A DNA stretch of 64,000 nucleotides from Amoebophrya sp. A120 (Eukaryota; Protista; Dinoflagellata): assembly GCA_905178155.1 (NCBI GenBank), contig CAJINV010000020.1, positions 310,001 through 374,000 on the forward strand, given 5' to 3'. Each line of letters starts with the position of its first letter. Positions within the stretch are counted from its first letter, which is position 1. The notes below the pieces were generated by a model. It ran no database searches. It was not told the origin of the DNA and was given only the letters and a program-made list of their open reading frames with translations. Shown in pieces: positions 11,259 through 63,809 of the stretch. Position numbers and translations under genes: made by a program.

Positions 11259-12003
11259 ATGGGAAAACAAGCGAGCGCCGCGCCGGGCAAAGCTGCAATG
11301 AAAAAAAGCGCAGCAAAGCCGGTAGGGAAGGAGCGATTGAAAAGCAAAAAATCCTCGTCGTCCTCGAGCTCCGCACCAGCTCCGACGAAAACTGGTACAA
11401 ATGCCAGTAAAAACGCAGCTCGTACTACGTCTTCCGCGTCTAGTGCAAAAAAAGATCCAGCACAGAAAAATACTACTATCCCCGGCGCCGTGGGCAATCT
11501 GATCGAGGCAAAAATGCGGGAAATGGTCACCAAGCGCGGCGCCGAAAAAACGTGCTGACCCTCGGAGATTCCGCGAGCGCTGTTTGCAAGTTCGGACTGG
11601 CGCGGCCTGATGGCGCAGACCCGCGACATCGCGGTCCGGCTGGCGAAGCAGGGCGTGCTTATGGATTGCAAATATGTCTGGGTCTGGAAACTTGTGATGC
11701 AAGTCCGTGAACAATAAAGTGCTCTGTAATGCGCCGCCAAGCATGACAAGTTTTTTCGTAATTCTGTGCTGCGTATTTCGCACGAAAAACTGCGCTTTTG
11801 CATGACAGGCAAGAGGACCTCTTGGTGGCGACGCAATACAGAGTGCAGAGTCATGCTAGACTAGCATGACAACTCTCGCAATCTTCCAGACCCAGACATT
11901 TTTGCACTTGATAGTGCTGACGATTGAACAAAAGGGAAAGCAGATCACGGTGGGAAACGCGGAGGAGATCAAGGGACCGGTGCGATTGCGGTCGAAGGTG
12001 TAA
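11259..12003 (+). CDS. DUF3253-family protein with an in-frame UGA (putative selenocysteine), 2 exons
   Basis: Reading through TGA 11556-11558 and removing the introner gives KRGAEKTC-U-PSEIPRAL..DWRGLMAQTRDIAVRLAKQGVLTIEQKGKQ...IKGPVRLRSKV*, matching DUF3253 motifs TxCPSE, WRxLM, QKG and GPIRL. Confidence 0.85.
11660..11913. mobile_element. Introner family A (254 bp)
   Basis: About 30-bp TIR (TGCAAATATGTCTGGGTCTGGAA / TTCCAGACCCAGACATTTTTGCA); perfect 5-bp TSD GTGCT. Confidence 0.95.
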
Positions 12004-12121
12004 AACTTTCTTTCATTAAAGTACTTGCGCAAGACAAGTTTAGAATTCGAAATCCAACTCATCTCGCAGCCGATCGGTTGTTCATACGGAGGTCTAGTCA
12101 GAGTCAGCTTTTAGTGTGATG

Positions 12122-12190
12122 CCTCGACATAATTTTGACGACAACTACCTCAACCATCGAAAGGTGCAGAGTCGAGATATGTCAACGAGG
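12122..12190 (+). promoter_or_regulatory. Candidate SECIS-like stem-loop in the 3' UTR
   Basis: CCTCG/CGAGG and GACATA/TATGTC outer helices; TGA-N13-AA-N22-GA spacing; CATC-GAAA-GGTG mini-helix. Helix II is imperfect and the first base is U rather than A. Confidence 0.45.
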
Positions 12191-13035
12191 TTGATTTTTT
12201 TTGCAGCGGAAATCGATGCAGGTGCAACTGATGGATTTTTGTTTGGATGAGTCTTTTCAGCTCGTGAACAGCGCGAATATGCTGGTCGGTTGCCCCGTGA
12301 AGAAATCGTAGTCATTTTGGATGGAAAACCACACGAGAAAACTCTCCTCATGCTTTGTTCGAGATGAACATAATATAATATTTCATCGAAAAGGAGCACA
12401 GACTCGAGGTGAGAGTTCTGTCCTGTTAATTTTTGATGACCTCGGATGTTGAGAGAATTTAGCTCAGCGCGCGTTCTCGGATAAGAAGGCAGACGAGCCC
12501 ACCGCACTTTCGGGAGAGAAGAGTGATAATTCGCAGAGATTTATTGATGGTTCTGCACCTATGAAAAAAACCAGCGGCCCCAATTTTTGTTTTCACGGTA
12601 GCAAGAAAAGCTTTGCTTTTGAGTTGATGTTTATGGACAAACAGTAGACATGTAGAAAGATATCCAATGGGTCGTCGTGTCGCGGGATGAAATGAACACG
12701 ACTTTTGAAATGTGTAGTATAGGATAACTAAGGTGGATTGACGTCTTCGTGAAGAACCTTCGTCGGGGGAGCTCTAGCGTAGTCGTTTGAAGATACAACT
12801 GTTGGTCGTAGTCGCGCAGAGTGAAGACAAACCATGACCTGTAATTTCGTTTCAAAAAACCTTCTAGGCCTTTTGAGAAGCTGCAGGTACGACAGCAGTA
12901 AGGAAGTCCATAGCAAGTAGGTATACTACGCTAATTGTGGTCTTTACGCCTGTGTCCGTTCCTTGTTTAAAAATGCATCCCCACTTGTATTAAAAACCTG
13001 TATCACAACATCAACATCTTACTAAAACTGCAAAA

Positions 13036-15218
13036 ATGCCTCTCGCCGGCTCCACGACGCCGCTCGCGTCGGTGTTCGCGAAGACGGTACGTTTCGCGGT
13101 GCGCGTCGGCGAAAAAGTTGCCGACTACCTGGAGCAGCAAGACGATCGCGACCAAGGAAGGGCCGCGGTGGAGGTGACATCAACTACAGAGACATCTTCG
13201 CGAAGTGGTAGTGGAATTTCTGGAGTAGAAGTTCCTCGTTCTGCAGCAGTAACGTGTGACCACAGCACGACGACCAGTACAACAACCGAGGAAATAAACG
13301 AGTGTAGCCGGACCACGAGCATTTCGACAGCTACCACAACGGCTACATCGCCGACGTCCGAGACCTCTCTCTCGACCTCTACTACTTTTGGAGACCTTGA
13401 CGTCTGCTTCTCCCAGCAAGAATGCGCGATCTGTCTCCGTTCTTTGGAAAAGGGCGCGCTGCTACGGACGCAGTGCGGACATTGGTACCACGCAGCCTGC
13501 GGGATGCAAGCCTGGCAGCGCCGGCCGCTTTGTCCGCTCTGTCGGGAACCGATAGATTGCGTTGCCGACAGTGTTGACACGTGCACGCCGGTCACGTTTG
13601 AGGATCTTTGCAGCGCAGGCAACTACTGCACCGGGGACCGGACTTCACAGAACAGTGTGGCGGCGAGACCGTATCTATGTTTTGCTTGGCTTTTTTTGCA
13701 TGAAGTAAGTAGTCTTTGCATAATGATCAATTTTGGTTCCGAATCAATTAGATCAAGGGTACTTGTTCTTAAAGCCATAGCGAAGAACGTCCGATAAAAA
13801 AAACACAGATCCTTCCCGACAAATCCCGCGGATTACTTTGCCGGTTCGGATTCCGACGCATTGCGGCGTGTTTCGCAGGCCATCACACGCCTAAGCCTCG
13901 TGGACAATGCGCTTGCAGTGCGGCCTCGCGACGCTGGGGGGGCATCGTATTCGTTTGATTCATTTTTTTTTTGGTGCTAGTATGATGTATGTTAGGAGGT
14001 AGCCAGTTTCATCCACCATGTTTTCGGTTTCCTCGATACAAGGCTGGCTTTGAATGATTATGATCCCAAATAGTTTATTTTGAACAATAAAGCTGCCATT
14101 CTGAAATCAGTCGTTCTCCCGGCGACGACGCCACGTCCGGCACCCCGACCGGCGAGGAACGGCAGCGGCAGCAAGACGAATCCGTCCGTGGCATCCTCAA
14201 CACCGTGCCCATAGATCCGCACGTGCTGGCCCGGATGCGGCGCGAGAACCGCAGACTCGGAACGCAGCCGGCTTTTTCCAGCATGCTGCGCGGCGGGGTC
14301 GAAAATAACGCTCACGGTCATTCGCGCGCACCGTCCACGGGCTGCATTTACGCCGATCTGTTCCTCGCGGACTTGGGAATCTGGTCTAATTTGAACTACA
14401 GCAGCGCGAACAATGCAAATGCTTCGTCCTCCTCTAGTAGCAGCACGGCGGCAGCCCTGTCGACGAGCCCGTCGGTCACGGACCTGAACACGATGGTGGA
14501 ACAAGGATCTTCAAACCCGAATTCACCCACTACGACTTTTCGACGGGGGGAACAAAGACCGGAAGTGACGGACACAGCAGCCACAGCACCTTCAACATTA
14601 TTCTCCACCACGACTTCTGGTAGCGCCACCTCTACCTCCACCAGCAGAGATGATTCCTCGCCCACAAGTAGGTTGCAGCAGAACCTGAACCGCGCAGCGA
14701 ATCTTCCGACAGCTAACACTACGACAAATTCCACCTCCACCAGTGCCACCACCGCGGAGGAGCTTTTGGAAAACGGGACGTTGAACCTACCACCTCTCAC
14801 CGAGTACCAGCACTCGCTGCTCCGCGGCGTGTGCCTCGTGCAGCTGATCGACGAGCTGTTTCAGTACGCGTCGGTCGGGCACTACGAGGCGGTGTCCGCG
14901 ATTTTGAGCAGTGGGTTTGTGGACGTGAAGTCCGCGAAGGACGTCTGTGGCAACACGATCCTGCACTTCGCGCGGAACCTGGACATTGTGAAGCTGTGTG
15001 TCGAAACCTACCACGCCGACGTAAACGCGGTAAACGACGCGGTGTGGAGTCCGCTGCACTGGGCCGCGGAATGCGAAAACCCCGCCTTGTGTTGGACGCT
15101 GCTCCAGTACGGCGCAGACCCGACGGTGTATACGAATTGCTCCAGGACCGCCAGGGATCTCGCCACCTCCGACGCCGTGCGGTCCGTCTTCGACTCCTTC
15201 TCCTCGCGGTCGGCGTGA
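13036..15218 (+). CDS. RING-H2 zinc finger plus C-terminal ankyrin-repeat protein (putative E3 ligase), 3 exons
   Basis: CAIC...CGHWYHAAC...CPLC; ankyrin motifs GNTILHFA and WSPLHWAA; exons 13036-13670, 13809-13946 and 14111-15218 joined by phase-compatible GT-AG introns. Confidence 0.8.
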
Positions 15219-16610
15219 AGGTCAGAACTGTGGATGGATTTAGAATAAGGTGTATGCGTCTCTGTGAATTTCTCCTGTCCCCACTCTAGTAAGTACTACA
15301 CGCCCACCTACTTATACGACAGTGAATACCAAGATTACAACCACCTGCAGCACCACCCTTCTACGAGTATCAGCCCCTTTTATTTAGCACCATCGAAAAA
15401 AAGCCGCTTAGGATGTTTGACCTTTTGCAATTTTGAAAAGTCTCGGATAAGATAGATACACCCTTGTTTAATATTCTGTTTCGAACTGTAAAAATGTCGC
15501 AAGTGTACAGACCCGCAATGTGATGTGGAATCTATGCTGGCAACTTAAAATATAAAAAGTCTACCCCAGTAGTTGACGGCTCTGTGAATCTTGATCTTTG
15601 ATCGTAAGCCTGAATGACTGGCGGTGAAAACGAGCAAGAAAGATTCCCAAGAAACATTTTCCTAGGAAGTGTTTCCAGTTTTGAATTTTGGTTTGTTTCT
15701 GATTTAGTACCGAGCAATGATGCTAAAAGTTGAAAACAACAGCTTTATTGCCAATAACAATTAAGGACGGCACGAAAATGAGCAGAACTGGCACTGTAAT
15801 GCGTAAGCTGATAGCGGAGCTACGGATATCTGAACTAGGTGGTTTAAAGAACTTTCTTCAGCTTATGACTTTCCTGAAGTTTCGAGTTATTCAGCACACA
15901 CTGGTGTGAGTATGATTCTCTACGTATTGACTTCACTCAAAAACATACGTAGCAAATCGGTTCTTGCACAACTGTTGGTTTTTGCAGCGTCTGGGCGCAA
16001 CATCCAACAGAAAAGGGAAATCCGCCACTGCTGCTTCTTTCTGAAGAGGTATCCGTTGGACTGGAAAGTATTGAGTGCGCTAGTGGACAAATTCAGCATC
16101 GCCGGCCTTCGGAAACAAGGGAAGGACTGAACTAGCGCCACCCGAGCTTTTTTTTCGATGATCTCTTTACTCGTTTTCTTGGACACCAATATGATAATCC
16201 CACGCCCGTATGAGTTTTCAAATGACGCTGTCAATGTCAGTTTTGACCGAAAAAAATAAATTCCTGATAGAGATGAAAAAGGCCTGAAGCAACCACAAAA
16301 ATCGTGGAGCTACAGCGTGCTTCCGATACAGTAAGTAGACCACGGGTGCACCTGCTGAAGCCACTGCGTGCTCCCGCGTTCCCGCCTGTCTTTAACTTGC
16401 CGAGAGAGTAGCGAGGTCGTTCGTGTATCGCTCGTGCGAATGAATTTTTGAGAGTCTTGAGTGAACAAGTTCAAGTAGAGATGTTTGCTCATGGTTGTGT
16501 TCTTTTGTGGCGCATTTTACTGCATTTTAGTACAACGCTAAAGACTGCAGCATTACCATTACTCGCAAATTATTGGAAGCATCTCGACCGCGTCTCCACA
16601 CTCCAAAACC

Positions 16611-19114
16611 ATGCCTCCCTGCTTCCAGCAGAGCGACTTCGCCCGCATGACGGGAGCTGAGCTGGCCGCGGTCCTGGCCGGCCACGGCAAGTCGGTGGCG
16701 AACCCGCGGGCGAGCAAGCAGACACTGATCGAAAAGTTAGTCAAGATTGAGGAGGTCACGGAGCGCGGCCTGATGCACGACGCCATGACGCGAACCGGGT
16801 TGATGAACTTGCTGGAGGGGATGGGGAACCACTCCTCTTCGAATCAAGTGTTTTCCCGGGGCATGCTATGCAATACAAATTTCCCGTACATGTATGAAAT
16901 GCATGACAAATTTTGCTAGCTTAGAGTGTCCAAATTTTCATGCTGACTACGATTGAAGGCAAGTTTTGTCATGCAGAAACAGCATTCATACGTGTGCGGG
17001 AGATTTGGATTTCCTGTGGATACATGCTGGCGACGCGGGTCATCTCCACACTGAACAAGCGGGCCCGGCTATCCAAGAAAAAAAACGTTGTTAGTGTGAA
17101 TTTGTAATGCGCAAGAACATGCAAGATAATTACGTCTGTCATGCTTGGCATGGATTGTAGGGTCCAGTAAAGGGCGTTTTCACATCCTCTCTGCGCATGA
17201 CAGGTTTTTGCTGTCATGCCAGACAGATTTGTAATGCTGTTCCTCCAAAAAAGTTACACCTACAATGTTTTTTTCTTGGATACCGCCAGGAAGAAAAGAA
17301 AAAACTGGAAAAGCAAAAGGCAATCGAAAAAGCGAAAGTAAAGGAGCAAAAAGAAGCGGCAAAGGCGGAGGCGGCAGCGGCCAAAGTCGCGAAAGCGAAG
17401 GAGAAAGCGGAGAGGAAATTGGCGGGAAGTAGTAGCAAAGCGGTTCTTGTTGTTCCGGTGAATACGAAGATGACTGCGCAGCAGGCCGGCGCTCTTCCAA
17501 AAATTGCAGGGCCTGCCGCGAAGATAGTAAATCCGGACGATCCAATGCAGCAGCTGCGAAACCAACCCGCAGCGCCATCGCAGATGAATGCAGGATCTAG
17601 TTTATCTAAAGCTGATTCTAAGCCGAGCCGCGCTGTCCAACAACCTACTGTCGCTAGTAGAAGTGCAACTACTTCTGTGTCTGTTCTCGCTCCTGCTGTT
17701 GCTGCCTCGGCGAAAGACAGCGAAAGAACCGACCCGGCGTTGCGGTACCCGGGGTTGCCGAAGGACTGCAAGGATAAATTCCAAATCAACGTGTATTTTC
17801 GCGAAAAGTGGAGCAAGTATCCCTACGTGAAAGACGACTCGGTGAAATTCGTAACCGAAGCCGACACGCAGCTGGTCCGACACATCCCAGAACTCCAGTA
17901 CCAGACCGCGTTCCTCCCCTTGGAACACGAAATCAAAAAGGTGCGCAAGCAGTTGCAAGGGGGCACGCAGGAGGTGCTGATTCTTATTTGCGATCTTTTT
18001 TTTCGTTCGTCGGGCTTAGTTATTACGTTGCTCTATCTAAGCGAGATTTTGATGATTGTGCAGCATCGAAAAAAAAAAAATCCATCAGGTGCATACCGAG
18101 ATTATGAAGCGGCTCCACGATGTTGAAAATTTACCGGAAGCGGAGAAGAAGAAGTCCTGCGAGGGCTCCTTGGTCACTTCATGGGAAGATTTCTTCTACG
18201 GCGGCACCTCCATTTTTCATCTCACGGCGAATTCCTTCAAGGTGGTGTGGCACAACCACGGCGGCATTCTGTACTGTTGGTACCACCACAAAGCGCACCA
18301 ACAGTTCTGGTCGCAGTTCAGCATGAAGGAGCGGAAGCAGGAGTCGGACCTGGTCTGGCAACGGTGGATGGAGTTGTTCGAGAAGGAATTGTTCGTCCCC
18401 ATGGCGCAGAGACTGACCACGCATGTGCAAAAGTATTTGCAGAAGAAGCAGAAACTCGTGGCAACGGTGGACGCGCGGAAAAAACAGATCGAGCAGCAAA
18501 AAATGCTGTTGGAAGAGAAGCGGATCATGCAGGAAAAAATGGAGCAGAAAAAGCGGGAAGAGGAGAAACTTCTTGCCGCACGGATGTTGAAAAAGCAGGA
18601 AGAAGAATTGCTGTCAAAGAAAAAACAAGCCGAGCAATTACAATTAGAGGCGGAGCGCGAGAAGAACGCCACTACGGTCGAAGAACAACGGGGTGCGGAA
18701 ACTACGGGGCGGATGCAAGCTACAACTGGCGAAGGAGCCACCGCGAACGGCGGTGCTGCCGCGGAACTGAAGAGCGCCGCGGGAAAGAACAAGATGAAAC
18801 CGACTGAAGAAGAAGTGATCAATCTCGTGTCCTCTGATTCCAGTAAGTCGTCCTCCGTCGCCGTCGTCGTGGAAGTTGTCGATAAGAAAGTAGTGGAACA
18901 GCAAGCAGTTATCAACGAGAGCGCGACAGAGGTGCTCGATGATGCAAAGGCCGTCGTGGTATCAGGAACTGTCCCGGCGGTGTCGGACGGGGAATTGGTG
19001 AAAGGAAAAAGACCTGCCTCCGTAGGAGCCGTGCAGGAAGCAGAGTTTGTAGCCTCTGGGGAGCAGGACAGTTCGCTAAAAAAACGGAAGATTGAGGAAC
19101 TGGAACAGTTGTAA
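16611..19114 (+). CDS. Hypothetical coiled-coil, Lys/Glu-rich protein, 4 exons
   Basis: Frame continuous after removing introners 16867-17022 and 17070-17282 (SRGMLATRVISTLNKRARQEEKKK) and GT-AG intron 17974-18088. Confidence 0.75.
16867..17022. mobile_element. Introner (156 bp)
   Basis: TAT...ATA ends; TIR core CAAATTTCCCGTACATGTATGAA / TTCATACGTGTGCGGGAGATTTG; TSD CATGC. Confidence 0.85.
17070..17282. mobile_element. Introner family D (213 bp)
   Basis: TIR TATCCAAGAAAAAAA / TTTTTTCTTGGATA; TSD CCGGC/CCGCC; reverse-complement homologue at 59217-59425. Confidence 0.9.
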
Positions 19115-20222
19115 GCAGCTGGTATGAATTGCAGAATGAGAGACGGTTAATGTTAAAGCTGTTAGCAACTTCAGATTTATTTTTCGCTCGAAAGTTTCTA
19201 GTACATTACAGAGCTAGGTTTGTAAACTCCGCTGTGATCTAAATTTGTATCCTTCGTATGAAGCAAAAAAAAAGGAGAAACCGACACTGCCACAGAAAGA
19301 AACTCACCGCAGATGATGTCGTGCTTCTTTTGCGCAAGAAGTTAGTACTTCCTTGAAAATATTGACTATGCAAAAGAGACGGATCCTGAGTACATGTGTT
19401 TTTTCTCCCAAGCAACAGAGGTAGAAACTGTCCGCTAAGACATGACATGATTGTTCCTGAACGAGCAAATAGCGCAAAGACCCACCACTCTCTCACACAG
19501 AAAAGGATCCAATTAGTACATGATGGCTACATACCGCTTCTATGAGAAACGCGAATCAATCTCGATTTCAATTACGCAAGCACTGTGCACAGCGTGGCGG
19601 TGATCAGCGATCCATTTTTATCAAGAATCCAATCACTTCCCACAACTGCGAGCAACATTTTTGATACAATCTCCACCACATGCAACTACACACCAGGGCA
19701 CCTAGAAGTGAGTGAGGTTTTTTCATTCGCTTTTTCGCGCTTTTGTTTTGTTTCCCTTTTACTTCACATCAAACACCATCAATTTTCGCGACATATTTAG
19801 CATTCCTAAGTATAGAAAATTTTTGTGAAGTGGAAAGAAGCACATTAGTGCTAACATAGCCTAGAGAAAGATCTGCTGCAGCGTTTCTCGTTGAGCAGCG
19901 CGGCAATTGCTCGCAGATCTCCATATCTTTCCTGCGTTTCAACAACAAACGGCATCGAGACTTTTCAAAATTTTGAAAAACACCTTATTTTTGCCGTGCG
20001 CAAGTTGCACCGCGGCACTAATAGCAAACCCCTTTCCATATTACCCTGGCGACAACGCCGTCCGGTCTAATTAGCTGTGAACGTAGAATTTTCTACTAGC
20101 ATAGGAGTAGGAAATTCATCTAGATTCCATTTTGGAACTAAAATAAACCCTTCCTACTGTCGTCTTTTCACTGTATTATCCAAAGACAAAGACCGTAAGA
20201 ACTTTTTCCACGAACAACGAAG

Positions 20223-23161
20223 ATGGGAGGCTTCCGATTCTTGTCGCTGATTAAGCCCGTCATGGTGCTGCTGCCGGAGGTGGCGCAGCCGGACCGACGG
20301 ATCCCGTTTAAGGAAAAGCTGCTGTGGACCTCGATTTCCCTCTTCGTTTTCCTGGTGTGCTCACAAATACCGCTGTACGGAATCATGTCCTCCAAGCTGA
20401 GCGATCCCCTCTACTGGATGCGAGTACTATACTTACGACTGTTTGATGTTGCAACAGTGTGTTTGGAGCTATTTCTCGCGTCGTGCTTTGGTTAGTACCT
20501 ACGGTGTCTCACGCAAGAGCTGCAACAGCACGTCCACGTGCACGGCGCCGCGCGCGGAGGTGTTGCAGCAGTACCATAATATGTACGCGCGAGAAGCAAC
20601 GAAAAGGGGATGGACAAAATGTCCTCGTCGCACCGATGTACTGTGGTTTCAAAACGTGAAAATAAACCCAACTGTAATATAGGTACTTATGGCTTCAAAC
20701 CGTGGGTCTTTGATGGAGCTGGGTATTTCGCCGATCGTGACTTCCTCTATGGTGATGCAGTTGCTCGCGGGTTCAAAAATTATTGACGTGGACCAGACCC
20801 TCCGCGAGGACCGAAATTTGTTCAACGGCGCACAGAAATTGTTCGCTCTGCTGATCACCTTCGGAGAAGCAACAGCGTACTGATTTACTACTGTTTTTTT
20901 GCCTGCTTCAAAACCAACAAATGTTATGTACGTGCTGCTTTATTATTATTTTCCGGTATGTACAACGGGGCTGCGTCTGCGTTCCACGTGAAAAATGAAT
21001 TCCAAATAATCAGATACGTGCTTTCTGGGATGTACGGGGATGTCCGCGAGCTTGGTGGTGGCAACTCCATTCTGATCATCATCCAGCTTTTCTTCGCCGG
21101 CGTCGTGGTGCTTCTGCTGGACGAGCTTTTGCAAAAGGGCTACGGTCTGGGCAGCGGAATTTCGCTCTTTATTGCAACCAACATTTGCGAGGCGATTGTG
21201 TGGAAAACCTTCTCCCCGACAACCATCAACACCGGAAAGGGAACCGAGTTCGAAGGTAGGGGTTATGTGGATAAATTGGGTTTTCTTTGGCTTGCAGAAA
21301 TAAAACAAAGAGTGGCGTGCTACGTCTATCTTCGATCATGCAAGAACGGGGGTTCCTTCCGGGCATCGTGCTGTTGATTGAAAATGTCTTCAGGTAGGAA
21401 ACGATTGTTCTCTACAACTATTACTATCAGGTGCTATCGTTGCGCTGTTCCACCTGGTTTTTTCGAGGTCCGACAAATTCCAGGCAGTCAGGGAAGCCTT
21501 CTACCGACAGTCTGCACCAAATCTGACCAACGTGTTTGCAACCGTTCTGGTCTTCCTGATTGTCATTTACTTCCAAGGTAAGCACACGGAAAATCTTCTT
21601 TCTTGAAAAAGAAATCGAATGCGGATGTCGAAAAATGTGTCATGCAGACCTCCGATGGTATTTTCTCTTTGTGTAGCACCAAATAAGCGCATGACAAATA
21701 AATGCACTAGCCCGTACAACGACCACTACAGGCTTCCGCGTCGATCTCGCGGTGAAGTACCAGAAGGTGCGCGGACAGCAGGGCAGCTACCCGATTAAGT
21801 TGTTCTACACGTCCAACATTCCAATCATCCTGCAAACCGCTTTGGTCTCCAACCTGTACTTCTTCTCCCAGCTGCTGTACCGCCGATGGAAGAGCAACAT
21901 GCTGGTATAGTGAAGTGTGCATGACATATCGGATACTTTGTTGACGGTTTTGAATCACAAATATGCAGCATTAGACCACACGGAGATGAAACGGAACAGT
22001 CAAAATTATGCTCTGCATGGTAGTGTTCCGCATGAGAAACCTGTTTTGCTTTACTGTTTGTGCATGACAAAACAACAGGTCAACCTCCTCGGACAGTGGC
22101 AGGACCTGGACTACGGCGGTCAGTCTATCCCGGTCGGAGGCCTCGCTTACTACATCTCCCCGCCTAACAGCTTCTCCGACATCTGGGTACTACAAACTTT
22201 TTTTCTGTGCATGATCACCAGCCGGTCCGTGCATGGCAGATGTACTATGAGCTTTCCAGTGTAGAAGTTCATTGCATGACAAACACGCAAGCACCGCATT
22301 TCTGTTTAGCATGACAAACGCGCCGCAAGACCATTTGGCTACTTCCTATACATCCTACAAATTCATCACCGCCGGTCAATTACATAAAAAAACAGGTCGA
22401 TCCCATCCACGCTCTGTTCTACATCTCCTTCGTGCTGTGCAGTTGCGCTCTGTTCTCTAAGACCTGGATCGAGATCTCCGGCAGCATATGCATTGCAAAT
22501 ATGTCTGGGTCCGGAACAAGCTTGTGATGCTAAAGTATGGATGAGGCTTGTGCTTTCAAGTACAGCCGAGCATGACAAAATTACTTGACACCGTCTGTTG
22601 CTATGTAGCACGCATCACAAACTGCGTCTTTGCAAAAGTAAACGCTTTTGCTGGCTAGGCAACACAGATTTGTCACAGGAATGCTAGACATGCAACACAA
22701 GTTCTTGCACTGTTCCAGACACAGACGTGTTTGCATTCGATACAGCAGCCCCCGTGACGTCGCCAAACAGCTCCGCGACCAGCAGCTCTTGTTTAAGGGG
22801 TACAGGGAAACCAGTCTTATCAGCGTGCTGAACCAGGTAAGGATTTTTTTTCCTGTGGTTGGCGCATCGGAATTTTCTATCTGGGGTAACATCAGATGCA
22901 AAAACTTTCCTTTTTCATCTTGTTATGCCTGTTGCGCTGTAAATTTACATGTTCAACATCACTCCCCACACCGAAAATTCTAAACAGTACATCCCGACCG
23001 CGGCTGCCTTCGGTGGTATGTGCATTGGTATGCTGACCGTGGTGGCGGACTTCTTGGGCGCGATTGGCTCCGGGACCGGTATCCTGCTCGCGGTCACCAT
23101 TGTGTACAACTACTTTGAGCTCGTCTACAAGGAAAAGGAACAGGGCAACTTGCTGTTCTAA
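20223..23161 (+). CDS. SEC61A: Protein translocon subunit Sec61 alpha, 9 exons
   Basis: [86 protein letters not shown]; introns 20424-20682, 20877-21013, 21256-21430, 21578-21731, 21905-22078, 22187-22395, an introner at 22487, and 22837-22987. Confidence 0.98.
20428..20681. mobile_element. Degenerate introner forming GT-AG intron 1 of Sec61 alpha
   Basis: 254 bp; TATACTTAC...GTAATATA ends; flanking 5-mers AGTAC/GGTAC. Confidence 0.55.
22487..22742. mobile_element. Introner family A in Sec61 alpha (non-canonical intron)
   Basis: TIR ..TGCAAATATGTCTGGGTCCGGAACA / TGTTCCAGACACAGACGTGTTTGCA..; TSD CAGCA; removal restores the conserved [13 protein letters not shown]. Confidence 0.95.
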
Positions 23162-24177: not shown

Positions 24178-24241
24178 CCCGTGCTCTTTCCTGAAGAATT
24201 TCGCACTCCCTCCCAAGAAAATTTTATCGCGCGTCTTCGCT
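24178..24241. repeat. About 64-bp dispersed direct repeat, copy 1
   Basis: Near-identical to 26250-26312. Confidence 0.85.
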
Positions 24242-43763: not shown

Positions 43764-46700
43764 ATGAAATCATTGGCACCGCCAACGATGTCGGTGATTT
43801 TTCCCTGGTCCTCCGACCGGGTCACACTTGATGTCCTCCGGTTGTTCATCGCCCTCCACACCGCTCTCTACTTCTTCCCCACTCTCGTCAAAGCGAGGAC
43901 CTTCCCGGATCGGTCGCAAAGCACGAGCGGGCGGGAGTTTCTCCTTCCCCCGGGGGCCGGGGTCCCGTTCGTCGAGAGCCAGAACCCCTTGGCGCGGACC
44001 GCGTTACCCTGGAACGAGGGGACGTACATGTCCCGGTACGTATGCAGCGACTTTTTGTCACCTGGCCGTGCCGTGGAAACTGAAAGTGTCGCTGAGCAGG
44101 CGCAGGCCTGCGGGCTCCTGCTGGCCAGAAACTTTACGGTGAAGGTTCATGAGAACAATGTAGATCGTGCTCCCGCCTCTGCTCCTGCAAGCAACGATGT
44201 TCAACATCTGGATGAAGTAAAAAAAGCTGTTCTAGGAAGGTCAAGTACCGGCTGGACTCGATCCCTTTCGGACGACAGCACCGCGCCTTCAGAAGTAGAA
44301 CAGCACGTGGGTCGCGACGTCTTCGCAAGCGATAACTCTGGCGGTGCTCCTGGTGGAGCATCCTCGTCTTCGCAGAACAACCCTAAAGCAGAATTGTTTT
44401 CATCTTCACTGCAAGAAGTCGTGCAAAAACAAGCAACAGCCTCCGAGAACAAATATCACCTCGATGATCTCGACTTCTACGCCGCCGCAAGCCAGCATGA
44501 TGCTGCAACTATGAGAAACACCTCTGACGACTTTGACTGCTGTTGGGCGAATGAAGTACTGGATCGCGCTCGAGCTACTCTTGGAGATGGGTATAGAAAT
44601 CACGATCCTTTATTTCAGAGTGATGTTTGCAGGAACGTCACGCGAGAGGGGGACCTACATCTGTCGCGGGGATTTGACACGGACCCCAACGTCGATGTAG
44701 TTCAGAGCCTGTTATGCTCCCAGTGGAAGCAGGTGCAGCGGTACTGCGTGGACCATTATGGGGAAGATTTGGACCTGGACAGCATCAAATGCAAAAATGT
44801 CTGGGTCTGGAACAAAGCAACTTGTCATGCTAATAGTCTGAATCATGTAAAAATTTGTGTTGCATGATTACCAAAAGCTGTCCACTTTTGACCTAATCGA
44901 GAGGCAGCTTCTCATGCAGGATTGGCATGAGAGAACTCTCACAGAATCTATCATGCTATGTCCTACATACCAGACCTCATGGGTCATGGAAAACCTGCAT
45001 GACAAGTCTGGCACTCTTCCAGACCCAGACACTTTGACATTTGATAGGGTCCGATGGCAGTGCCGCGGAGGAAAAGGAGCAGTATCAAAAGGAAAAATCC
45101 CCCCTCCCCATATCAGAAGGAAGTTTCTGATGCTGGATTTGCGTAGACAAATCAGCTTTGTATTGCAGAGAGGCACTGCGGGCAGATCTCCGGGCTAGAT
45201 AGGGGCGTATGTGTCTAGTTGTTCAGCATGGCAAACGGCTGCCCTTTAGGCCCAACAGCATGACAGATCGCCTCTATAATGGGGCGGAAGCTCGTCCGGT
45301 GGGGAGCTACCTCCCCACCTCCCCCCAGCACTGGGGAGGTACCTCCCCACCCTAGGAAGGCACCTCCCCACACATGGGGAGGCACCTCCCCAGGGTGGGG
45401 AGGTGGGGAGGTGATACGTGGGGAGGTGATTCACACCATAACCAAAAGTATCGTACTCGTAGTAATTGCAGTCATGCATGACAAGTCTGGTTCCTCAGCT
45501 TATTCAGCATTACAAATTCCATTTTTCCTTCTGGAAAAATTTGTAATGCTATTTTTACTAGTGGTGTTCAACGTCGTGTTCGAGCATACTATAACCACTG
45601 CGTGGACCATTATGGGGAAGATTCATCAAATGCAAATATGTGGTCTGGGCCGGGAAGATTGCAACTTGTGATGCTGCATTTAGATTCCAAAAAAATCTGT
45701 ATTGCATGAGCAGCAAAGGGAGTGCAATTTTTGCTACGCGGAGAGGGCATTTGTCATGTGGAATAGGCATCAAGAAGCCCTCAAAAAATCTGTGACGCTA
45801 GGGCATGCGTCACAGACTTCATGGCTCATGCAAAACGTGCATCAGAATCTTCCAGACCCAGACATATTTGCAATGCATAAGATTTGAACCTGGACAACAT
45901 CAACGCGAGCAGTGACGAGCACCCCGGGAAGCAAGAGGTCGCAGGGTCGGGTGTCGGTGCTGATGTGAAGAGGTTCTCCATTTTCACTCCGAGAACGAAT
46001 TATTCTACTTCGGGAACAGCTGCTGCGGTTGTTCACGAAAAAGACGGAGCAGCGTCGCAAGAAGGGTGTACAGTAGAACCACCAGGAGAACCGAATTCTA
46101 GCAACTACTCGGATCATCATCATCATCATCATCGTCCTGCTGGTTTTCAGTACAGACCTTTTAGCACCACGAAAACCACGGAAGATCCAGACGGGCGAAA
46201 TCGCCCACCTTTGCTGTCTTCAACAGATGAGCTCGACAAGACGTGTTCATCTAAAAGCTCGTGCAATCTTCGGGAAACTCCGGAACTCCAGCTTTCTTCC
46301 GCTAGCACGGCGTCCACGTTGAGCAGTAGCTCAAGAAACAACTACAACTCGCTATTCACGGGGGCCAATCATTACGTTGAGCCGCCGATACTAGTAGCAC
46401 GAGGGAAGGCGCAAGCGCATGAAGACACAACTCTAGGAGGGTTGTCCCCATTAGCCCTGCCGCCGAGAGGAGGAAGCGCGACGCCCGCTGCGATTATTTC
46501 GGTGCCACATTTCCGTCTGGACGACGTAGACGACGAAGACGATGAGGATGATGTCAGCCAGGCAGATTCCTGCGACACCATCACCTTTATGCTCGACCGA
46601 GAAGAGGACGGAGAACCACTGTGCGATGAGGAGGCGCAGCGCGACGTGTCAAGAAGTGCTGATAACCTCAGAACTTCTCAGATGCGCATGCGTCACATGG

Positions 46701-56514: not shown

Positions 56515-56955
56515 TTACATAGCGGGAAAGGAGCAGCTGTCATCAAGTGCTGGAGGAAAGCTATATTGCGAAATTCCTGTTTGCTTCAGTTTCGCTTGTG
56601 TATAGACGGAATCGACTCCTTACTTTGCAATGTCATGTAGGATAATTGACTGACGGCGACCGGAATGAGCCGACCAAGACGTCGAAGCTTCACGTCAATC
56701 GTTTCTTACACTTGTGTGCGTCGTGAGCACATCATACGGTGAGGTGTTCAGCGTTGGACAAAATCCGGTAGGATACTAAAGATCTTTCTCAGTCAGAGAA
56801 GCTCCTGATGCGATAGCAGTAATTCTACGAAGATCATGATCTTCGAGGTTTTTTTTCCTAAGGTCCACACGAAGATCCGCAGTTGAGAGATACTTTAGTA
56901 GGCCCGGATATGAATTGTTCTTCCTGTTGTTCTCGAAATAAAAAGTCGAAACAAG

Positions 56956-59900
56956 ATGCTCTACAAGAGGCGTTCTTCACCTTACTCTCTCCGTCCACCG
57001 TTCTGTTGCGTTGCGGTCTCGCTGCTGCACACGTGGTCCCGGGGGCGCCCGGGCGTCGTGCCGATACGGGCGGACTACGGTTCTGATGAGTTGAAGGAGT
57101 CCCTGTTTTTCGCGGAAGACAATGAAGGGTCCTTCAATCCCTACGACCTCCCGCGCACCGACCACGATAGGGAAGACGATGTGGGGGAGGAGGAGAGACC
57201 ACATGATCCACCAGACGAGGTTCTACCAGAGGAAGCCGAACAGCCTGAGACGGAGCCACCGCCTAACAATACCTCAGCTGAAGAGGAGGAACTCACCGTG
57301 GTCCTGCCGGACGGCGAAACGAGCGGAATAGAGGGCGACGGACCACATGAGCAAGAACATCCCGCATCGTCAAACACTGTCGACGACTACCAGCCTGCGG
57401 GTGACGACTACTTGTCCCAACTGGTCGAGCCGATAAATTCCAGAAGAAACCAAGAGGACTTGTCCGAAGAGTCGGAAAACTGCGCCGAGAACGACGACGA
57501 GCAGGTCTTCCGGCAGTATTTATTGCATTTCTACGAGTCCAACTACTGGGGCGCGCAGCAGTCGATTTTGTTTCACAAAATCCGCGGGTCGCACGCGCTG
57601 CACTGTCCCTCCGCGGTGCTGGGGACCATGTTGTTGAAGATGGAATCCTCCGTGTTCCGCCACGACGCGGACGAGGTGATCCCGGACCAGAAGGGGCTGT
57701 ACGCGACGTATCAAGTGCAAAAGTACTTACTTATCGTACTGGTACTAATCGCTGTCAGGCATGACAGATCTAGTTCTCTACGGGATTTCGCATCACAAAT
57801 TCCATTTTTCCTTCTGAGAAAAATTGTGATGCAATTTTCACTAGTGCGAAGATGTTTTTGCGATGCATACGACGTACTTCCACGACAACCTGTCCCGGAT
57901 CAACAGAAACTGGCCGCTGGCTATCATACAGAAAAAAGCAGGCAGGGCGTATTTGTGATGCATACAATGAATTGACCATAGCGTGCTGTTAAGGCTACGC
58001 AATACAGATTTTTCTGCGTGTTCGTGTATGTTTTTGCATTACAAATATAGCCACCTGCTGGCTTTTTTGTGCGGGATACTGGCGGAGGGCTACCAGCGGG
58101 TGCTGGATTTAGAAGAGGCGTTGGTCGAGAAAAAGGAGTACAGCATCGCGATGATCATGAACTTCTGCTCCGTCAAGGACCGGTTCGGCGAGGCGCACGG
58201 GCTGGATTGGCTCGCGGAAGGCAGCGACATGCTGGAGGAGGACCCGGATCTGCTAAGGATAGGTATCGACTTCTGTCGTTGTCCTGCATTTTCATTTTGC
58301 TAGCTCGTCTGTGCATGAGAGGTAGAGGCCGCTGTAAAAACTACTGTGATCAATATGGGTTGATGTCTGTAGATCAGGAGAAAACAACTTCTCAGTAGTA
58401 GTTTTCACCACTAAACACTCTCAGTTGACGTCCACATCTACATCGTCGACCTGCCCAAGTGCAATGGACAGCGCTCGCACTTCGCTCACATCGAGCGGGT
58501 CGTCAAGTCGCTCACCGTCGAGCGCTACCAGGGGGCGCCAGACCGCGAGGAGCAGAGCTCGTACTTTCGCTACATTGTCGACCACTACGACGATATGGCG
58601 GATTTCGTCATCTTCGTTCACCCAGACGCGCCGGAGCACCAGGGAAAGGAGATGCGCGCCTTGGTCGAGGCACTGCGGTTGCTGAAAACCAAGTCGGCAC
58701 TGGTAAAATTTTTGGATAGATTTTAGTTGTTTTGCGAATGGAAATCTTCAGAGGTGCAGCAGTTTCCTCTCGGACATGATAGGGAATAAAACCATGCAGC
58801 TCAAATTATTTTTGTGTGAGCGCGCCAAGAACTCGTCTGCTGGTCATTGGTCGCACTATCTGGTTCTGATCACGACCGTTGGCAAATCGACTGCAACACC
58901 CTCCAAACGATGATCGCGACCACCTCCTGCAGGCGTATCGCACCATAGAGTACTACCCGCTGGCCATGCAGTACATTCGCAGCCCTCTTTATGGAATGCG
59001 AGGAGTTCATTTGAGTCTTTCTCCTTGCAGCTGATGTGTACAAAAATTTAAAGTTCATTGTCTTGTTGTAAGTATTGCCCCCGAGGAGCAGTTTTCTGGG
59101 AGCGAAACGGTGAAAACGCAAGCAGGGCATGGTAATAGATAACTTTTTAACCTGTTCTAGCATGAGGAAGGTTCAAGAAATTTCCATGCTCCATACTTTC
59201 CGCACCTCTCGGTCCCTATCCAAGAAAAAAATATTGTAGGTGTAAGTTTTTTGGAGGAACAGCATTACAAATTTGTCTGGCATGACAGCAAAAAGCTGTC
59301 ATGCGCAGATAGTACGTGAAAACGCCCCCTGATGGACCCTGCGATGCATGCCAAGCATGACAGACGCAATCATCTTGCATGTTGAGCATCACAAATTTAC
59401 ACTAACAGCGTTCTTTTCTTGGATAGTCCCGGGCCATTCACTACTACGACGCGGGGGACCGCGAAGACGACTGGCCGGTATCAAGTGCAAAAATGTCTTT
59501 GTCTGGAAGGGTTGGAACTTGTGATGCAAACTCTGGAACACGCAAAAATTTGTGTTGCATGAGCGCCAAAAGCTGTCCATTTCTTGGCACGCAAGTAGGA
59601 AGTTTCTCATGCGGGACAGGCATCATGAGGCGTGCTCAAAATAACCTGTGATGCTTTTGCCTGCATCAGACGCCATTTGCGTGATCCGAAATATGCAAGA
59701 CAAATCTCGCAATCTTCCAGACCCAGACATTTTGCATTTGATAGACGGTGTTCTGGAACAAATTGTTCCTCGACCGGCCCAATGGCGTTTGCCCCCTCGG
59801 GTGCCGCTGGAACGACGAGATGGACCACGATTTTACCTTTTACATCTATCAAATGCAAAAATGTCCCGGTCTGGAAGAGTGCAACTTGTGATGCTGAATT

Positions 59901-60362
59901 TGGATTCTACAAAAATCTAGGCTGCGTGAACAGCAAAAGAGGTCCAGTTTGTGCCACGGCGAGGTGGCATTTCTCATGCGGTGTAGGCATCAGGAAGCCC
60001 TCACAAAATCTGTGATGCTAGAGCATGCGTCACAGACTTCAGGAGTCATGCAAAGTGTGCACGACAAACCTGGGCCTGGCATCCTTCCAGCCCCAGACAT
60101 TTTTGCATTTGATAACATCGCCAGCCAAGCGATCGTCCGTTCGGACCGGATCCGGATTCACCCACGAGAGTGGTACGGGAGCTTCTTCCAGCAAGATTTG
60201 ATCTGGTTTTCGAACAATTCCGGGCTGCTGGAGGCGGCCTGGCCCGTGATCATGGGGGAGGAACTGACAGAAGTGTCGCGGGAAGCGGATGCGCGGTTGC
60301 CGCTGGCACTGAAGTTTGACATCTTGACGAAATACAGCTACGGCTGGAACGACGTGATCTAG
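56956..60362 (+). CDS. DUF3431-family protein, isoform using 3' module 1
   Basis: REEQSSYFRYIVDHYDDMADFVIFVH; ASQAIVRSDRIRIHPREWY; SGLLEAAWPVIMGE; frame restored across 5 introners and other introns. Confidence 0.8.
57709..57869. mobile_element. Introner family B (161 bp)
   Basis: TATCAAGTGCAAAAG...TTTTTGCGATGCATA; TSD CGACG. Confidence 0.9.
57922..58078. mobile_element. Introner (157 bp)
   Basis: TIR TATCATACAGAAAAAAGCAGGCAGG / CCTGCTGGCTTTTTTGTGCGGGATA; TSD CTGGC. Confidence 0.88.
59217..59425. mobile_element. Introner family D (209 bp)
   Basis: TATCCAAGAAAA / TTTTCTTGGATA; TSD GTCCC. Confidence 0.92.
59479..59743. mobile_element. Introner family A (265 bp)
   Basis: TIR; TSD GCCGG/GACGG. 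Confidence 0.9.
59847..60114. mobile_element. Introner family A (268 bp)
   Basis: TIR; TSD ACATC; the empty site in paralogous module 2 has a single ACATC. Confidence 0.95.
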
Positions 60363-60720
60363 AGGTTGAAGATGTGCTGGACGTACTGGCAATACAACCG
60401 CACGACGTCGAGACATGCTCAGCTGCTGAATCGATCACGATCTTCAGGCCTTTAGTGTAGTACTGACCTCCATGCGTCCTGGTGTCTTCGCTTCGACCCC
60501 GGGAGTAAGTAGTAAACAAACCCACGCGCCCACCGTGGAGGTGCCGGCGGAGTTCGACATACAGAGCCCGAGGACTACGAGCATCTTCAGACCGAGTTCC
60601 GAAAGAGGCGAAGTATGCGGAGAGCTGCGTGAAACTACACAGAAGTTGCGTGCTTTCATACCGCTGTAGAAGCAAGAAGTAGTGCACCTGACGAATCTTC
60701 GAATCGATCCTACACTACAG

Positions 60721-61562
60721 GCCTACAACTCCATCGAGTACTACCCGCTGGCCCTGCAGTACATCCGCGAACCGCTGTATTCGGGGAAAATTTTGCTGAA
60801 TCGAGAGAAGCAAAGTCGACGTGTTGCATGGTAATTGTACTTCATTGTGCGCAGAATTGCTGACTAAATTGATCGTGTGCGAGACGAGGTCTAACATACG
60901 CTGCAGGACGACTATGCTATCCCTTGATTCTTTACTTTTCCCCTTTCGTGGTCTATACGTTCCGCACCCGGCGCAGTCTGGAGCACATCAAGGAGCACAA
61001 TGACGAGCACGACTACTGGGGTGACTTTTGGAAGCGGCTCGTGAGCCGGCCCAACGGGCTGTGCCCCTTCGGCTGCGACTGGAATCACGAAATGGACGAA
61101 TCCTTCACCTTCTACATCGCCAGCCAAGCCGTCGTGCGCAAGGACCGCATTCTCCGGCACCCGCAGGACTGGTACCGCGGGTTTTTGCATTTGAGCGAGG
61201 AGGAAGAAGCTCGCGGGGATTCCCTGACCGAGCACCTCCGCTGGCTCAGCAACAATTCGGGGTTGCTGGAGGCCGCGTGGTATCCTGTGCAAAAGTATCG
61301 TACTCGTAGTAATTATTGGAAATATGCATGACAAATCTTCTTGCTAAGGTAAAACAGCATTACATACAAATTCCATTTCTAATCTTGAGGCAATTTGTAT
61401 TGCGATTTATACTAGTGCGATACTTTTGCAATGCAGACGTGGCCGGCGATTTTGGGCGAGCCTCTGACGGAGCCGACGCGGGACGAGGACCCGAGGTTGC
61501 CGCTGTCACTGAAGCTGTCTATTACGACAAGGTATTCCGACGGACAGGCCGGGGTGATATGA
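60721..61562 (+). CDS. Second, paralogous 3' module of the DUF3431 gene (alternative terminal exons or partial duplicate)
   Basis: AYNSIEYYPLALQYIREPL..RPNGLCPFGCDWNHEM..ASQAVVRKDRILRHPQDWY..LLEAAWPAILGE..; starts at a phase-0 CAG acceptor. Confidence 0.8.
61281..61437. mobile_element. Introner family B (157 bp)
   Basis: TGCAAAAGTATCG / CGATACTTTTGCA TIR; TSD CGTGG. Confidence 0.9.
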
Positions 61563-62139
61563 GCGGGAATTAGGCCATTTCTTTATTCCTTCGTTCTTGA
61601 TGTAGCATTTTTGAGCTCTAGTATTCTTGCTGCGACTTCCTGTGTAAGTAAGTAGTAGTTTGATGCGCGGCCGCCGTATTTGACGCATCGCAAAAATGTG
61701 CGGCGTTTCTTGCAACTGATTCCAACGCGAACGCAAACGCACTGACACCTTGATGTAGTTGTCGACTTCATCAAATTGCGGGGCTTGTCGTGATAGGACC
61801 AGAAGCACGACGTCGTCGGAAAGAAATACTGTCCGGCCGAGTCAGTTCTTGTGTTTCCTTTGAGAATGACATAAAGCGGCACTTGCTACGAGAGAGATAC
61901 TGTTGCAAGCGGGAGACGCGCCTTTGATGCATGTGAGCGACGCGGAGGGTAACATAAGGTGTGCTGCCTGCTGGCTGTGTATACTTCCTGCATAGAAGTT
62001 ACAATCAGGGCTGCAGCAGCACGAGCAGCCTAATTATCAAAACCACTTGCTTGTAGATAAGAAAAAGGGACGAGGAAGGCGGCCGTTTGGCCGGCAAGAA
62101 TTTTTCTCGACCAACCGCCTGCTGCATCACTGAAAAATT

Positions 62140-63809
62140 ATGACGACGGCGCTGGTATCCAGCATGATTTCGGACGAGATTTCTTTCGCCATCGCGGCGG
62201 GAATCGGGGTCTGCACGCTCGCCTATCTTCACATGCGGATGACCGGGGGGATGAAAAATCAGGACAAGAAGAATCATGTCGATGCGGCGCAAGAACCTGT
62301 ATTGCTGCAGGACGAGGAGCGGCGGGCGGAGCAGCATGCGAATCTTCCTTCTGCGAGGAAAACTACCACGACGAACAAGAACCCTGAAAGAAGATCTTCG
62401 TGGTTCAGTGACAATGTCATGGAGCAAAGAAATTCATTTAGTAAGGGCGATGCAAGTAGTTCTTGCAGCAATGCCGATGCTCGGGGCTGCACTGAGACCA
62501 AATCTCGCCTCAGTGCCTTTTTCTCATTTTCCGGAGAAAGTGCTTCTACCACATCACACGTTTCGACGGCGAGCGAAAAGACACCAACGACTTCCACGAG
62601 TGCGGCGACGAGCAAGGAATCAGTGGGAGGTGGAACAACTACAGCATCCGAGCAGGATCCTCCACTGGATATTAAACCACGGTGGACCAGTTTTTTCTCC
62701 GCAGCACCCGCTTCCGGTTGTACTTCTAGTTCTATGAAGATCGCAACCTCCTCCCGACGTCCGGAAGAACTACAACACAATGACGTCGATTGCGGCGCCA
62801 GCACGTTTTCGGAGCAAACCGAAGACGACGAGGATTCGGACGAAAGTGTAGCTTCCAGCACGCTCCTCTACTCCACAGGCGGGAATAAAGCCAGCCATTT
62901 ACTCTTACCCGATCTCGGGTTTCGGCTCGAAGTCGGCGAACTATCAACTGCAAATATGTCTGGGTCTGGGAGATTGCGAGATTTGTCATGCTAGTCTGGC
63001 ATGACTCTGGGATTTGTATTGCGTGGCAACCAAGAGCTCCTCTAGCCTGTCATGCAAACACGCAATTTCTCATGCGGAATACGCAACAAAGAAGCATGAA
63101 AAAACTTGTGATGCATGGCGGCGCATTACAGTGTCCTTATTATTCAGTGACCTGCATCACACTTTCCAGACCCAGACATTTTTGCATTTGATACGAACAC
63201 CAAATGTACCACGGTAGGATGCAGTTCACGGTCCGCCTGCTCGAGTGGCGCGACAAGAGCCCGAACGAGCAAGTCACTCTCGCAAAAGCCACCCGTTCCT
63301 ATTCCCAGTTCAAAAAGCTGCACAAAACGACCAACAGCAAGCAGCACACGCCGTTTCTGCGCCGCCTGCTGTTCTCGTCCCACGTCAGCAAGGTGCAGCA
63401 GCGGACGGAGTGCCTGCAAAAGTTCTGCGCAAGGTTGCGGGTGTCAGACCGGAATCTGAAGCTGCTGGCGGCGTTCTTGGCTTTGCGGAGTGGAAGTGAG
63501 GAAGAGACGCGGCTCCTCGAAGCGTTCGCGAAGCAAGCGGGTGCGGAAGAATTTTTCTGCTTTGCTGTTCATCTTTCAGGATGTCTTTATTGTCTTGCTC
63601 TTGCGGAAGTTCTGGGTTGTAGTCTTTGTCCTGTCCACGTGGCCTGGACTATTGCTGCACCTCCCCTGCGCATTTTGCTTCTGAAAGTGTACTCCTTTGC
63701 TGTCGTCCACTGCCGCATCATGAAGAAAGCAAGAATGTCCTCGGCGTCACACATACTTACGTGCTTACTTGCTAGTGCATCTGTGTTCGTTGCTCTAGCT
63801 CGCGGCTAG
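62140..63809 (+). CDS. N-terminally anchored protein with a PX-like domain; 3' end uncertain
   Basis: TM segment ISFAIAAGIGVCTLAYL; after introner removal EVGEHQMYHGRMQFTV..TRSYSQFKKLHK..VQQRTECLQKFC..LLAAFL. Confidence 0.65.
62942..63193. mobile_element. Introner family A (252 bp), inverted relative to the copy at 11660
   Basis: TIR; TSD CGAAC. Confidence 0.95.

Follow-up and report, generated by a model that had tools for sequence, protein, structure and literature searches.

The closest described system is that of the introner elements of Amoebophrya sp. A120 itself. Farhat et al. (2021; PMC7789003) describe them as non-canonical introns of about 240 nt that form a hairpin, are bordered by direct repeats of 3–5 nt and carry inverted repeats made of TAT, seven variable bases and then As. 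According to the same paper, A120 retains almost the full set of spliceosomal proteins along with U2, U4, U5, and U6, U1 is undetected, and the genes lie in co-oriented blocks with a GC content of about 51%. It reports no transposase in A120, while PMC12130899 ascribes the introners to diverse TIR transposons. More than 60% of the introns of Amoebophrya A25 and A120 lack GT-AG borders, and how they are removed in the absence of a detectable U1 is the question behind this analysis. Introners that are spliced in either orientation have been published for Polarella glacialis (classes 2, 3, 6, 7, 8, and 10) and Aureococcus anophagefferens (10.1101/2020.10.14.339549), where the GT, GC, or GA and AG sites are supplied either by the end of the element or by a constrained target (for example GHN6 or AGG), and where a strand bias is stated. 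In another lineage, the nonconventional introns of Euglena carry a paired motif set off by spacers of fixed length, N3-CDG...CHG-N5-6, and an exon-start purine (PMC12501133, PMC11282704), and are reportedly excised as circles (PMC11282704). The non-canonical introns of Fritillaria borealis are derived from transposons, carry TIRs and target site duplications, lack GT-AG and are accurately removed through a changed U2 spliceosome (PMC11282704, PMC13326754).

We analyzed a window of 64,000 nt from the A120 genome (Table 1). The coordinates of the four elements named in the preliminary description (A to D) coincide with exact TAT...ATA inverted ends, and all four fold with paired ends (z −5.6 to −8.2). 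They were said to form two reverse-complement pairs, and global alignment confirmed this. Element A is identical to the reverse complement of B at 220/264 positions (83%), as against 163/280 (58%) on the same strand, and C to the reverse complement of D at 195/230 (85%), as against 138/235 (59%). With 35 nt taken off each end, the interiors scored 239 in reverse versus 34 on the same strand for the first pair (z 76) and 208 versus 35 for the second (z 85). Both C and D begin with TATCC followed by an A run. A blind scan of the window for TAT...ATA was weakly above shuffles (16 versus 4–13) and was used as a list only. The repeat had no match in the viral contig collection searched.

Table 1 Host genes and TAT...ATA elements in the window.
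Feature	Positions	Strand	Direct repeats	Removed (nt)	Remarks
Host of A	11259–12003	+			DUF3253 protein; DUF3253 profile 23–56 before the element, 58–80 after it
Element A, family 1, 'A' orientation	11660–11913		GTGCT (11655–11659, 11914–11918)	259	
Host of C	16611–19114	+			669 aa spliced; GT-AG intron 17974–18088
Short TAT...ATA element	16867–17022		CATGC		Same gene as C; taking out 161 nt restores the 669-aa ORF; no join among the matches listed
Element C, family 2	17070–17282		CCGGC/CCGCC	218	Base 4 of the repeats unlike
Family-1 element, 'A' orientation	22487–22742		CAGCA	261	In Sec61alpha/SecY gene
Family-1 element, 'B' orientation	36506–36755		TCGCT		5' of Per1 domain (+)
Host of D	56914–60362	+			DUF3431; 586-aa spliced frame; six TAT...ATA and two GT-AG introns
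TAT...ATA element	57709–57869		CGACG	166	
TAT...ATA element	57922–58078		CTGGC	162	
Diverged TAT...ATA element	58990–59195		CTCTT/CTTTC		Informs cut register
Element D, family 2, inverted relative to C	59217–59425		GTCCC	214	Micro-exon of 17–21 nt precedes
Family-1 element, 'B' orientation	59479–59743		GCCGG/GACGG	270	
Family-1 element, 'B' orientation	59847–60114		ACATC	273	
Diverged TAT...ATA element	60778–60957		CGCTG/CGTTC		Informs cut register
TAT...AGA element	61281–61437		CGTGG	162	
Host of B	62134–63809	+			470 aa spliced; strand from ORF and codon model (11.7 vs 5.9)
Element B, family 1, inverted relative to A	62942–63193		CGAAC	257	

The elements share with the described A120 introners (PMC7789003) the start of the inverted repeat (TAT, about 7 variable nt and at least three As), border repeats within the published range (5 nt here, 3–5 nt there), removal from RNA without GT-AG and membership of genomic families, with eight family-1 copies within the window, a high summed depth over the elements in a DNA-like run (X6, below) and 153 copies in a related assembly. 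The co-oriented gene blocks and the GC content of about 51% are also common to that paper and the window. The text of the paper, as distinct from its figures, speaks of 'orientation' for genes only, whereas here the orientation of the elements is unbiased; and it treats the location of the borders as variable or not known, whereas here one register fits. Being short, with TIRs, a fixed-length target duplication and no coding capacity, the elements are MITE-like.

All four host genes lie on the + strand, as had been stated, on the evidence of Pfam profiles, GT-AG introns, spliced ORFs, and the codon model; the hosts of B and C have no Pfam match. Any of the four elements, if retained, shifts the frame of its host and brings in a stop. 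The frames had been called intact, which is true of three hosts, all open after splicing, but the host of A has an in-frame TGA (11556–11558) at a conserved Cys about 100 nt 5' of the element. This codon may specify selenocysteine, and the frame is intact only if it is recoded. Rfam and a pattern scan found no SECIS, and searching the literature for DUF3253 and selenocysteine yielded nothing of use.

Removal was read from contigs of two runs that we presume to be RNA (X1 and X3), alongside a DNA-like run (X6) and a run from another strain (X5). The RNA contigs lack the element plus exactly one repeat at 62942, 59217, 59479, and 59847 in one orientation and at 22487 in the opposite one. In X3, element B is bridged by the join 62936>63194, and element D by a join from 58988 through 12 letters to 59426. 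The element in the Sec61alpha/SecY gene is bridged by 22481>22743 in both X1 and X3, a join absent from X6. At element C, pieces of X1 and X3 contigs begin at 17287 with 367 letters preceding, from which we infer that this element, in the same orientation as 22487, is also removed from RNA. The join at element A (11654>11914) came only from an X5 contig that differs at five other places, and may therefore represent an empty allele. X6 retains the elements: at the sites covered, it crosses the element edges without a join. In the raw-read runs X9–X11, only element fragments with unlike flanks were matched, not host exons. We are confident that the elements are removed in either orientation, as the preliminary description proposed: both orientations are missing from RNA contigs, although of its four examples 11660 is joined in another strain only and 17070 is deduced.

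In the related assembly, the host strand could be called for 109 of the 153 copies, which are known from genome sequence alone. Their orientation relative to the host is unbiased (52 versus 57, p 0.70, 95% interval 0.38–0.57), both orientations occur in each of eight subfamily bins, and the ratio is 6:8 when only Pfam-anchored hosts are counted. Of 18 pairs of neighboring copies separated by at most 300 nt, 7 have the two copies in opposite orientation. TAT/ATA ends together with perfect 5-nt repeats occur in 115 of the 153 copies, and the profile of the 109 has TAT at positions 1–3 and AAA at 11–13. Taking out the element plus 5 nt gives two-sided coding support in 94 of the 109 copies, versus 6 for plus 4 and 15 for plus 6. 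At the Sec61alpha junction the ranking by the codon model is wrong (13.1 versus 14.7), a case that falls under the calling threshold.

The cut register can be obtained from junctions with mismatched repeats. Register 4 alone fits all four of them, two of which share one position in paralogous genes; the amino-acid effects of the mismatches at these loci did not settle the register. Judging from these four junctions, the intron would be N-TAT...ATA-NNNN, extending from 1 nt before TAT to 4 nt past ATA, and it is probable that the inverted ends impose a fixed register. Such a register helps to discriminate between a relaxed spliceosome and a machine of another kind. In the orientation and splicing literature searched, outside which most subscription papers lie, we found no published report of unbiased introner orientation or of the N-TAT...ATA-N4 register.

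No + strand register yields GT-AG or GC-AG for any of 13 elements, so the GT/GC...AG borders of canonical U2-type introns are lacking, and in register 4 a G at +1 together with a terminal AG, the GT-AG reading, occurs in only 4/109 copies. The canonical introns in the window have a GTA donor in 11/12 cases. Element C can be read as a GC-AG intron of the minus strand, but we discarded this reading in view of the + strand position of its host. The target repeat has no protosplice AG|G preference (AG at bases 3–4 in 9/109, G at base 5 in 35/109), and the target sequence appears nearly unconstrained. Conservation does not differ between the inverted repeats at the 5' and 3' ends (33 versus 28, p 0.61, a non-significant asymmetry relative to the host strand), so that nothing points to separate constraints on a donor and a branch; conservation of TAT/ATA is likewise expected from the needs of a transposase. 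An internal CAT[GCT]AC motif lies 40–60 nt from the 3' end in either orientation. It was rejected as a branch site, being missing in 4/12 window elements, as CATGAC is in 9/12 canonical introns.

Since both orientations are removed and the strand of the interior is immaterial, the signals are expected in the symmetric ends, and orientation independence confines them to the inverted repeats. Given removal either way without GT-AG, the cell likely locates the cuts from the paired element ends. The preliminary description had gone further, excluding strand-specific signals, invoking a symmetric TIR hairpin or motifs on both strands and setting the elements apart from spliceosomal introns. Symmetric ends are indeed needed, but an inverted repeat presents identical 5' and 3' ends in either orientation, so donor- or branch-like signals remain usable; and the cut itself appears asymmetric, 1 nt out on the 5' side and 4 nt on the 3' side. 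The either-orientation introners of Polarella and Aureococcus are spliceosomal and use ordinary dinucleotides (10.1101/2020.10.14.339549), so orientation independence alone does not prove a non-spliceosomal route. The elements here resemble those introners in being derived from DNA transposons, in forming introns both ways and in restoring the mRNA through the target duplication, whereas in the elements here neither dinucleotide is kept, the target is nearly free and no strand bias was seen.

We lean toward the view that these are MITE-like introners whose paired TAT...ATA ends are read by a modified spliceosome that cuts at a fixed distance. Insertion would be by a cut-and-paste transposase making a 5-nt staggered cut, with the orientation random and the choice of target nearly so. 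The paired ends, alike in either direction, would then be read by the modified spliceosome, with the cuts placed at a set distance. The 5' end N-TAT would match the local GTA donors at +2/+3 and leave +1 free, the 3' end would be fixed by its distance from the hairpin, and catalysis would fall to a U2/U6 spliceosome without U1. For the spliceosome as the catalyst, we see roughly even chances; a terminal stem of 30 bp would have to be opened before U6 pairs with the 5' end, which counts against it. If every site were spliceable in both directions, this would explain how tens of thousands of insertions can be tolerated.

The foremost alternative retains the same elements and register but assigns removal to a separate, non-spliceosomal machine that measures from where the terminal stem ends, either a structure-guided endonuclease with a ligase or a Euglena-type route; we give it a real but minority weight. 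Neither end keeps a dinucleotide, the hairpins are strong and U1 is undetected (PMC7789003), all of which would suit such a machine, as would the Euglena parallel of a paired motif with fixed spacers and circular excision (PMC12501133, PMC11282704). Euglena introns further resemble the elements in having no GT-AG, fixed unequal cut distances and a proposed MITE origin, but their motif and exon-start purine are not found here, where the arrangement is N1-TAT...ATA-N4 and the first exon base varies. Conversely, N-TAT matches the local GTA(T) donor, and the inverted and direct repeat layout is common to 15% of A120 canonical introns. The spliceosomal route in Fritillaria also speaks against a separate machine, although the preference for AG-AC/AG-AT ends, the TAC target, the retained U1 and the demonstrated spliceosome are all Fritillaria's own (PMC11282704, PMC13326754). 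A third nuclear pre-mRNA splicing code, in which a non-spliceosomal ruler cuts 1 nt before the 5' TAT and 4 nt past the 3' ATA at the hairpin base, blind to terminal dinucleotides, target, and insert strand, is a tentative and rather unlikely proposal. If true, any insertion of the transposon family would be harmless, at any coding site and in both directions.

It is very improbable that only one orientation is efficiently spliced, with the opposite copies in weak or dead genes or poorly removed. Contigs reveal presence rather than efficiency, and the host of A, with its in-frame TGA, has its join from X5 and none among the X1/X3 matches listed; but the 'A' copy in Sec61alpha is joined out, the orientation counts are balanced with equal frame support, and domains of helicase, Tpt1, and 3-hydroxyacyl-CoA dehydrogenase type are found next to 'A' copies. 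Equally remote is an origin of the joins in element-free DNA (empty alleles or precise excision) or in template switching by reverse transcriptase at direct repeats: hairpins with flanking direct repeats promote such switching, the RNA nature of X1 and X3 is presumed and the join at 11660 is from another strain, but the same X1/X3 contigs skip GT-AG introns, X6 shows no joins at covered edges, the assembled contig is the spliced form, the unspliced genes, Sec61alpha included, would be frameshifted, and joins occur at imperfect repeats too.

The elements in the window fit the A120 introners described in the accessible portions of Farhat et al. 2021 (PMC7789003), in which the inverted repeats start with TAT, the direct repeats are 3-5 nt, U1 is undetected and the introner border position is called unknown. 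Removal in either orientation is well supported as a real property of this known intron class. Elements A and B (family 1) and C and D (family 2) each start with TAT, end with ATA, and carry 5-nt direct repeats on both sides. The reverse complementarity of each pair proposed in the preliminary description is borne out by pairwise alignment: A and the reverse complement of B are identical in 220/264 columns (same strand, 163/280), C and the reverse complement of D in 195/230 (same strand, 138/235), and with the inverted ends trimmed, the interiors align in reverse only (z 76 and 85). Folding pairs the ends of A, B, C, and D (z -7.0, -7.7, -5.6, and -8.2, respectively). Family 1 has eight copies in the window, two in the orientation of A and six in that of B. 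Family-1 interiors, such as that of A, contain a CAT[GCT]AC / GT[AGC]ATG motif repeated in both directions, possibly subterminal transposase sites.

Family-1 and family-2 elements in the window
Element	Start	End	Family	Orientation
A	11660	11913	1	'A'
	22487		1	'A'
	36506		1	'B'
	44783		1	'B'
	45624		1	'B'
	59479		1	'B'
	59847		1	'B'
B	62942	63193	1	'B'
C	17070	17282	2	opposite to D
D	59217	59425	2	opposite to C

All four host genes lie on the + strand, as first described. A splits a DUF3253 domain, with profile positions 23-56 preceding it and 58-80 following. The host of C is a 669-aa frame on the + strand with an additional GT-AG intron on +, and that of D is a DUF3431 gene that contains two GT-AG introns, also on +; the host of B, a 470-aa frame without a Pfam match, is assigned to + by ORF and codon model. 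Retention of any of the four shifts the frame and brings in a stop. The description of these frames as intact holds for the host of A only if its in-frame TGA at 11556-11558, which aligns to the ICPS-motif Cys of PDB 2ns0, is recoded. TGA terminates three further long ORFs of the window and is therefore no general sense codon there. From the sequence, this TGA is likely read as selenocysteine, making the DUF3253 host a candidate selenoprotein; a SECIS was not found for it. The TGA is unchanged in an other-strain contig in which five other sites differ, four of them third codon positions.

The RNA evidence consists of assembled contigs, which give the presence of joins without strand or efficiency, and the RNA label of sequencing runs X1 and X3 is a guess. 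X3 contigs skip B (62936>63194, 257 nt, the element plus 5) and D (58988, then 12 micro-exon letters, then 59426); among the joins listed, they likewise skip 59479, 59847, 57709, 57922, 60778, and 61281, as well as two GT-AG introns. A micro-exon of ~17-21 nt (59200-59216) between two hairpin introns is retained in an RNA contig. The 'A'-orientation copy at 22487, in Sec61alpha/SecY, is skipped in X1 and X3 contigs (22481>22743), as are at least eight GT-AG introns. Run X6 has none of these joins among those listed and its contig pieces cross element edges; it therefore behaves as DNA. For C, one contig piece in each of X1 and X3 starts at 17287 with 367 letters preceding, from which we infer a join that removes it. 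For A, the sole join among those listed (11654>11914) is in an X5 contig that differs at five other sites and therefore represents another strain; this join could reflect splicing or an empty allele. Depth in X3 covers the exon at 11541-11615 and is zero at 11830-11831 within A, a pattern compatible with splicing.

Orientation counts, suggested earlier as a genome-wide check, were obtained from one related assembly and show no bias. A pattern scan of metagenome contigs gave at least 151 loci, all those listed being from that assembly, with at least 153 full family-1 elements (in 115/153, the 5-nt repeats are perfect and the ends are TAT/ATA). Eight of the 153 were dropped for poor ends, repeats, or orientation score, and of the 145 left, 109 were assigned a host strand by a codon model whose training set was the genes of the window (leave-gene-out, 96-99% correct at margin >3). 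These copies, known from contig sequence, comprise 52 'A' and 57 'B' relative to the host strand (p 0.70), and all eight subfamily bins contain both orientations. Adjacent elements were assigned the same host strand in 15/15 pairs. Pfam matches were found in 18/150 sense-called flanks (150 of 163 sent) versus 0/103 antisense flanks, which have a shorter total length; Pfam-anchored loci (n=14) split into 6 'A' and 8 'B'. Elements ≤300 nt apart, presumably in the same gene, are opposite in 7/18 pairs, a comparison that needs no strand call. Six C/D-family copies in the same loci occur in both directions. Coding support on both sides was obtained for 94/109 copies on element+5 removal, compared with 6 for +4 and 15 for +6, a result that is partly circular because the 109 had been selected using +5 removal.

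Perfect repeats conceal the cut, and imperfect-repeat junctions were therefore used to determine the register, the cut position within the 5-nt repeat. At both 58990 and 60778, RNA contigs permit a cut after base 3 or base 4, and at 59479 after any of bases 2-5; the inferred join at C permits base 4 or 5. Base 4 is the sole register compatible with all four junctions, two of which occupy the same position in paralogous genes. The apparent intron is then N-TAT...ATA-NNNN. In the 13 window elements, no + strand register yields GT-AG or GC-AG; only 4/109 related copies would read GT-AG under the base-4 register, and the target repeats of the related copies have no AG|G preference. Conservation is equal in the two inverted repeats. 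In the window, 11/12 canonical introns begin with GTA, and the 3' ends are A-rich rather than pyrimidine-rich, as in the introns of region 13671-22987; thus, N-TAT looks like the local donor without a constraint on the first base. The GT-AG intron 20424-20682 is bounded by TATA...TATA with near-repeats and could represent an old introner. The TAT...ATA introns 58990-59195 and 60778-60957 share a codon position in two tandem paralogous genes, and no similarity is detectable between their interiors. In one gene, both repeat copies carry T at base 2; in the other, both carry G, a pattern pointing to either parallel insertion or constrained repeats.

The most probable mechanism is random insertion of a TIR transposon, accompanied by a 5-nt duplication; its ends would then fold together in the transcript, and a relaxed spliceosome would cut 1 nt upstream of TAT and 4 nt downstream of ATA, regenerating the original mRNA. 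The main rival, with which these data are also compatible, is removal by a separate structure-guided nuclease and ligase. The preliminary description correctly invokes a symmetric signal. That description's exclusion of donor- or branch-like signals does not follow, because inverted-repeat ends present identical 5' and 3' sequence in the pre-mRNA whichever way the element lies.

Orientation independence by itself has precedent. Introners able to insert in either direction have been described in Polarella by a source that also cites Aureococcus (10.1101/2020.10.14.339549); in the part of that source available, they have ordinary splice dinucleotides, constrained targets, and strand bias, unlike the window elements. 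The excerpts available of other work include methods providing for insertions in opposite orientation (Gozashti 2022), a list with A120 introners (Gozashti 2025), and a stem-and-spacer code in Euglena that is similar but has a different motif (PMC12501133, PMC11282704). Element orientation is not mentioned in the accessible text of Farhat et al. 2021 (PMC7789003), nor did a term search of its supplement reveal it, and neither orientation nor register for these elements appears in the accessible parts of PMC8469720, PMC13326754, PMC12621601, PMC12005148, and PMC11453091. The wider search, with subscription papers mostly outside its coverage, found no such report. In the literature searched, the combination of one apparent register with the lack of dinucleotides, target preference, and strand bias was not found in print; this combination renders the mechanism testable.

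The composite region 44743-45880 comprises a duplicated segment of an exon, two family-1 elements in which the initial TAT is replaced by CAT, pieces of further elements, and an inverted repeat rich in G/C (45308-45416), with no clean RNA join among those listed. An N run (1002-1634) between identical 212-nt duplicates (790-1001 and 1635-1846) is an assembly gap. Degenerate tandem repeats occupy 4546-5140 (units of about 230 nt) and 31949-34306 (380-500-nt units); in the latter, single stops lie between successive ORFs.
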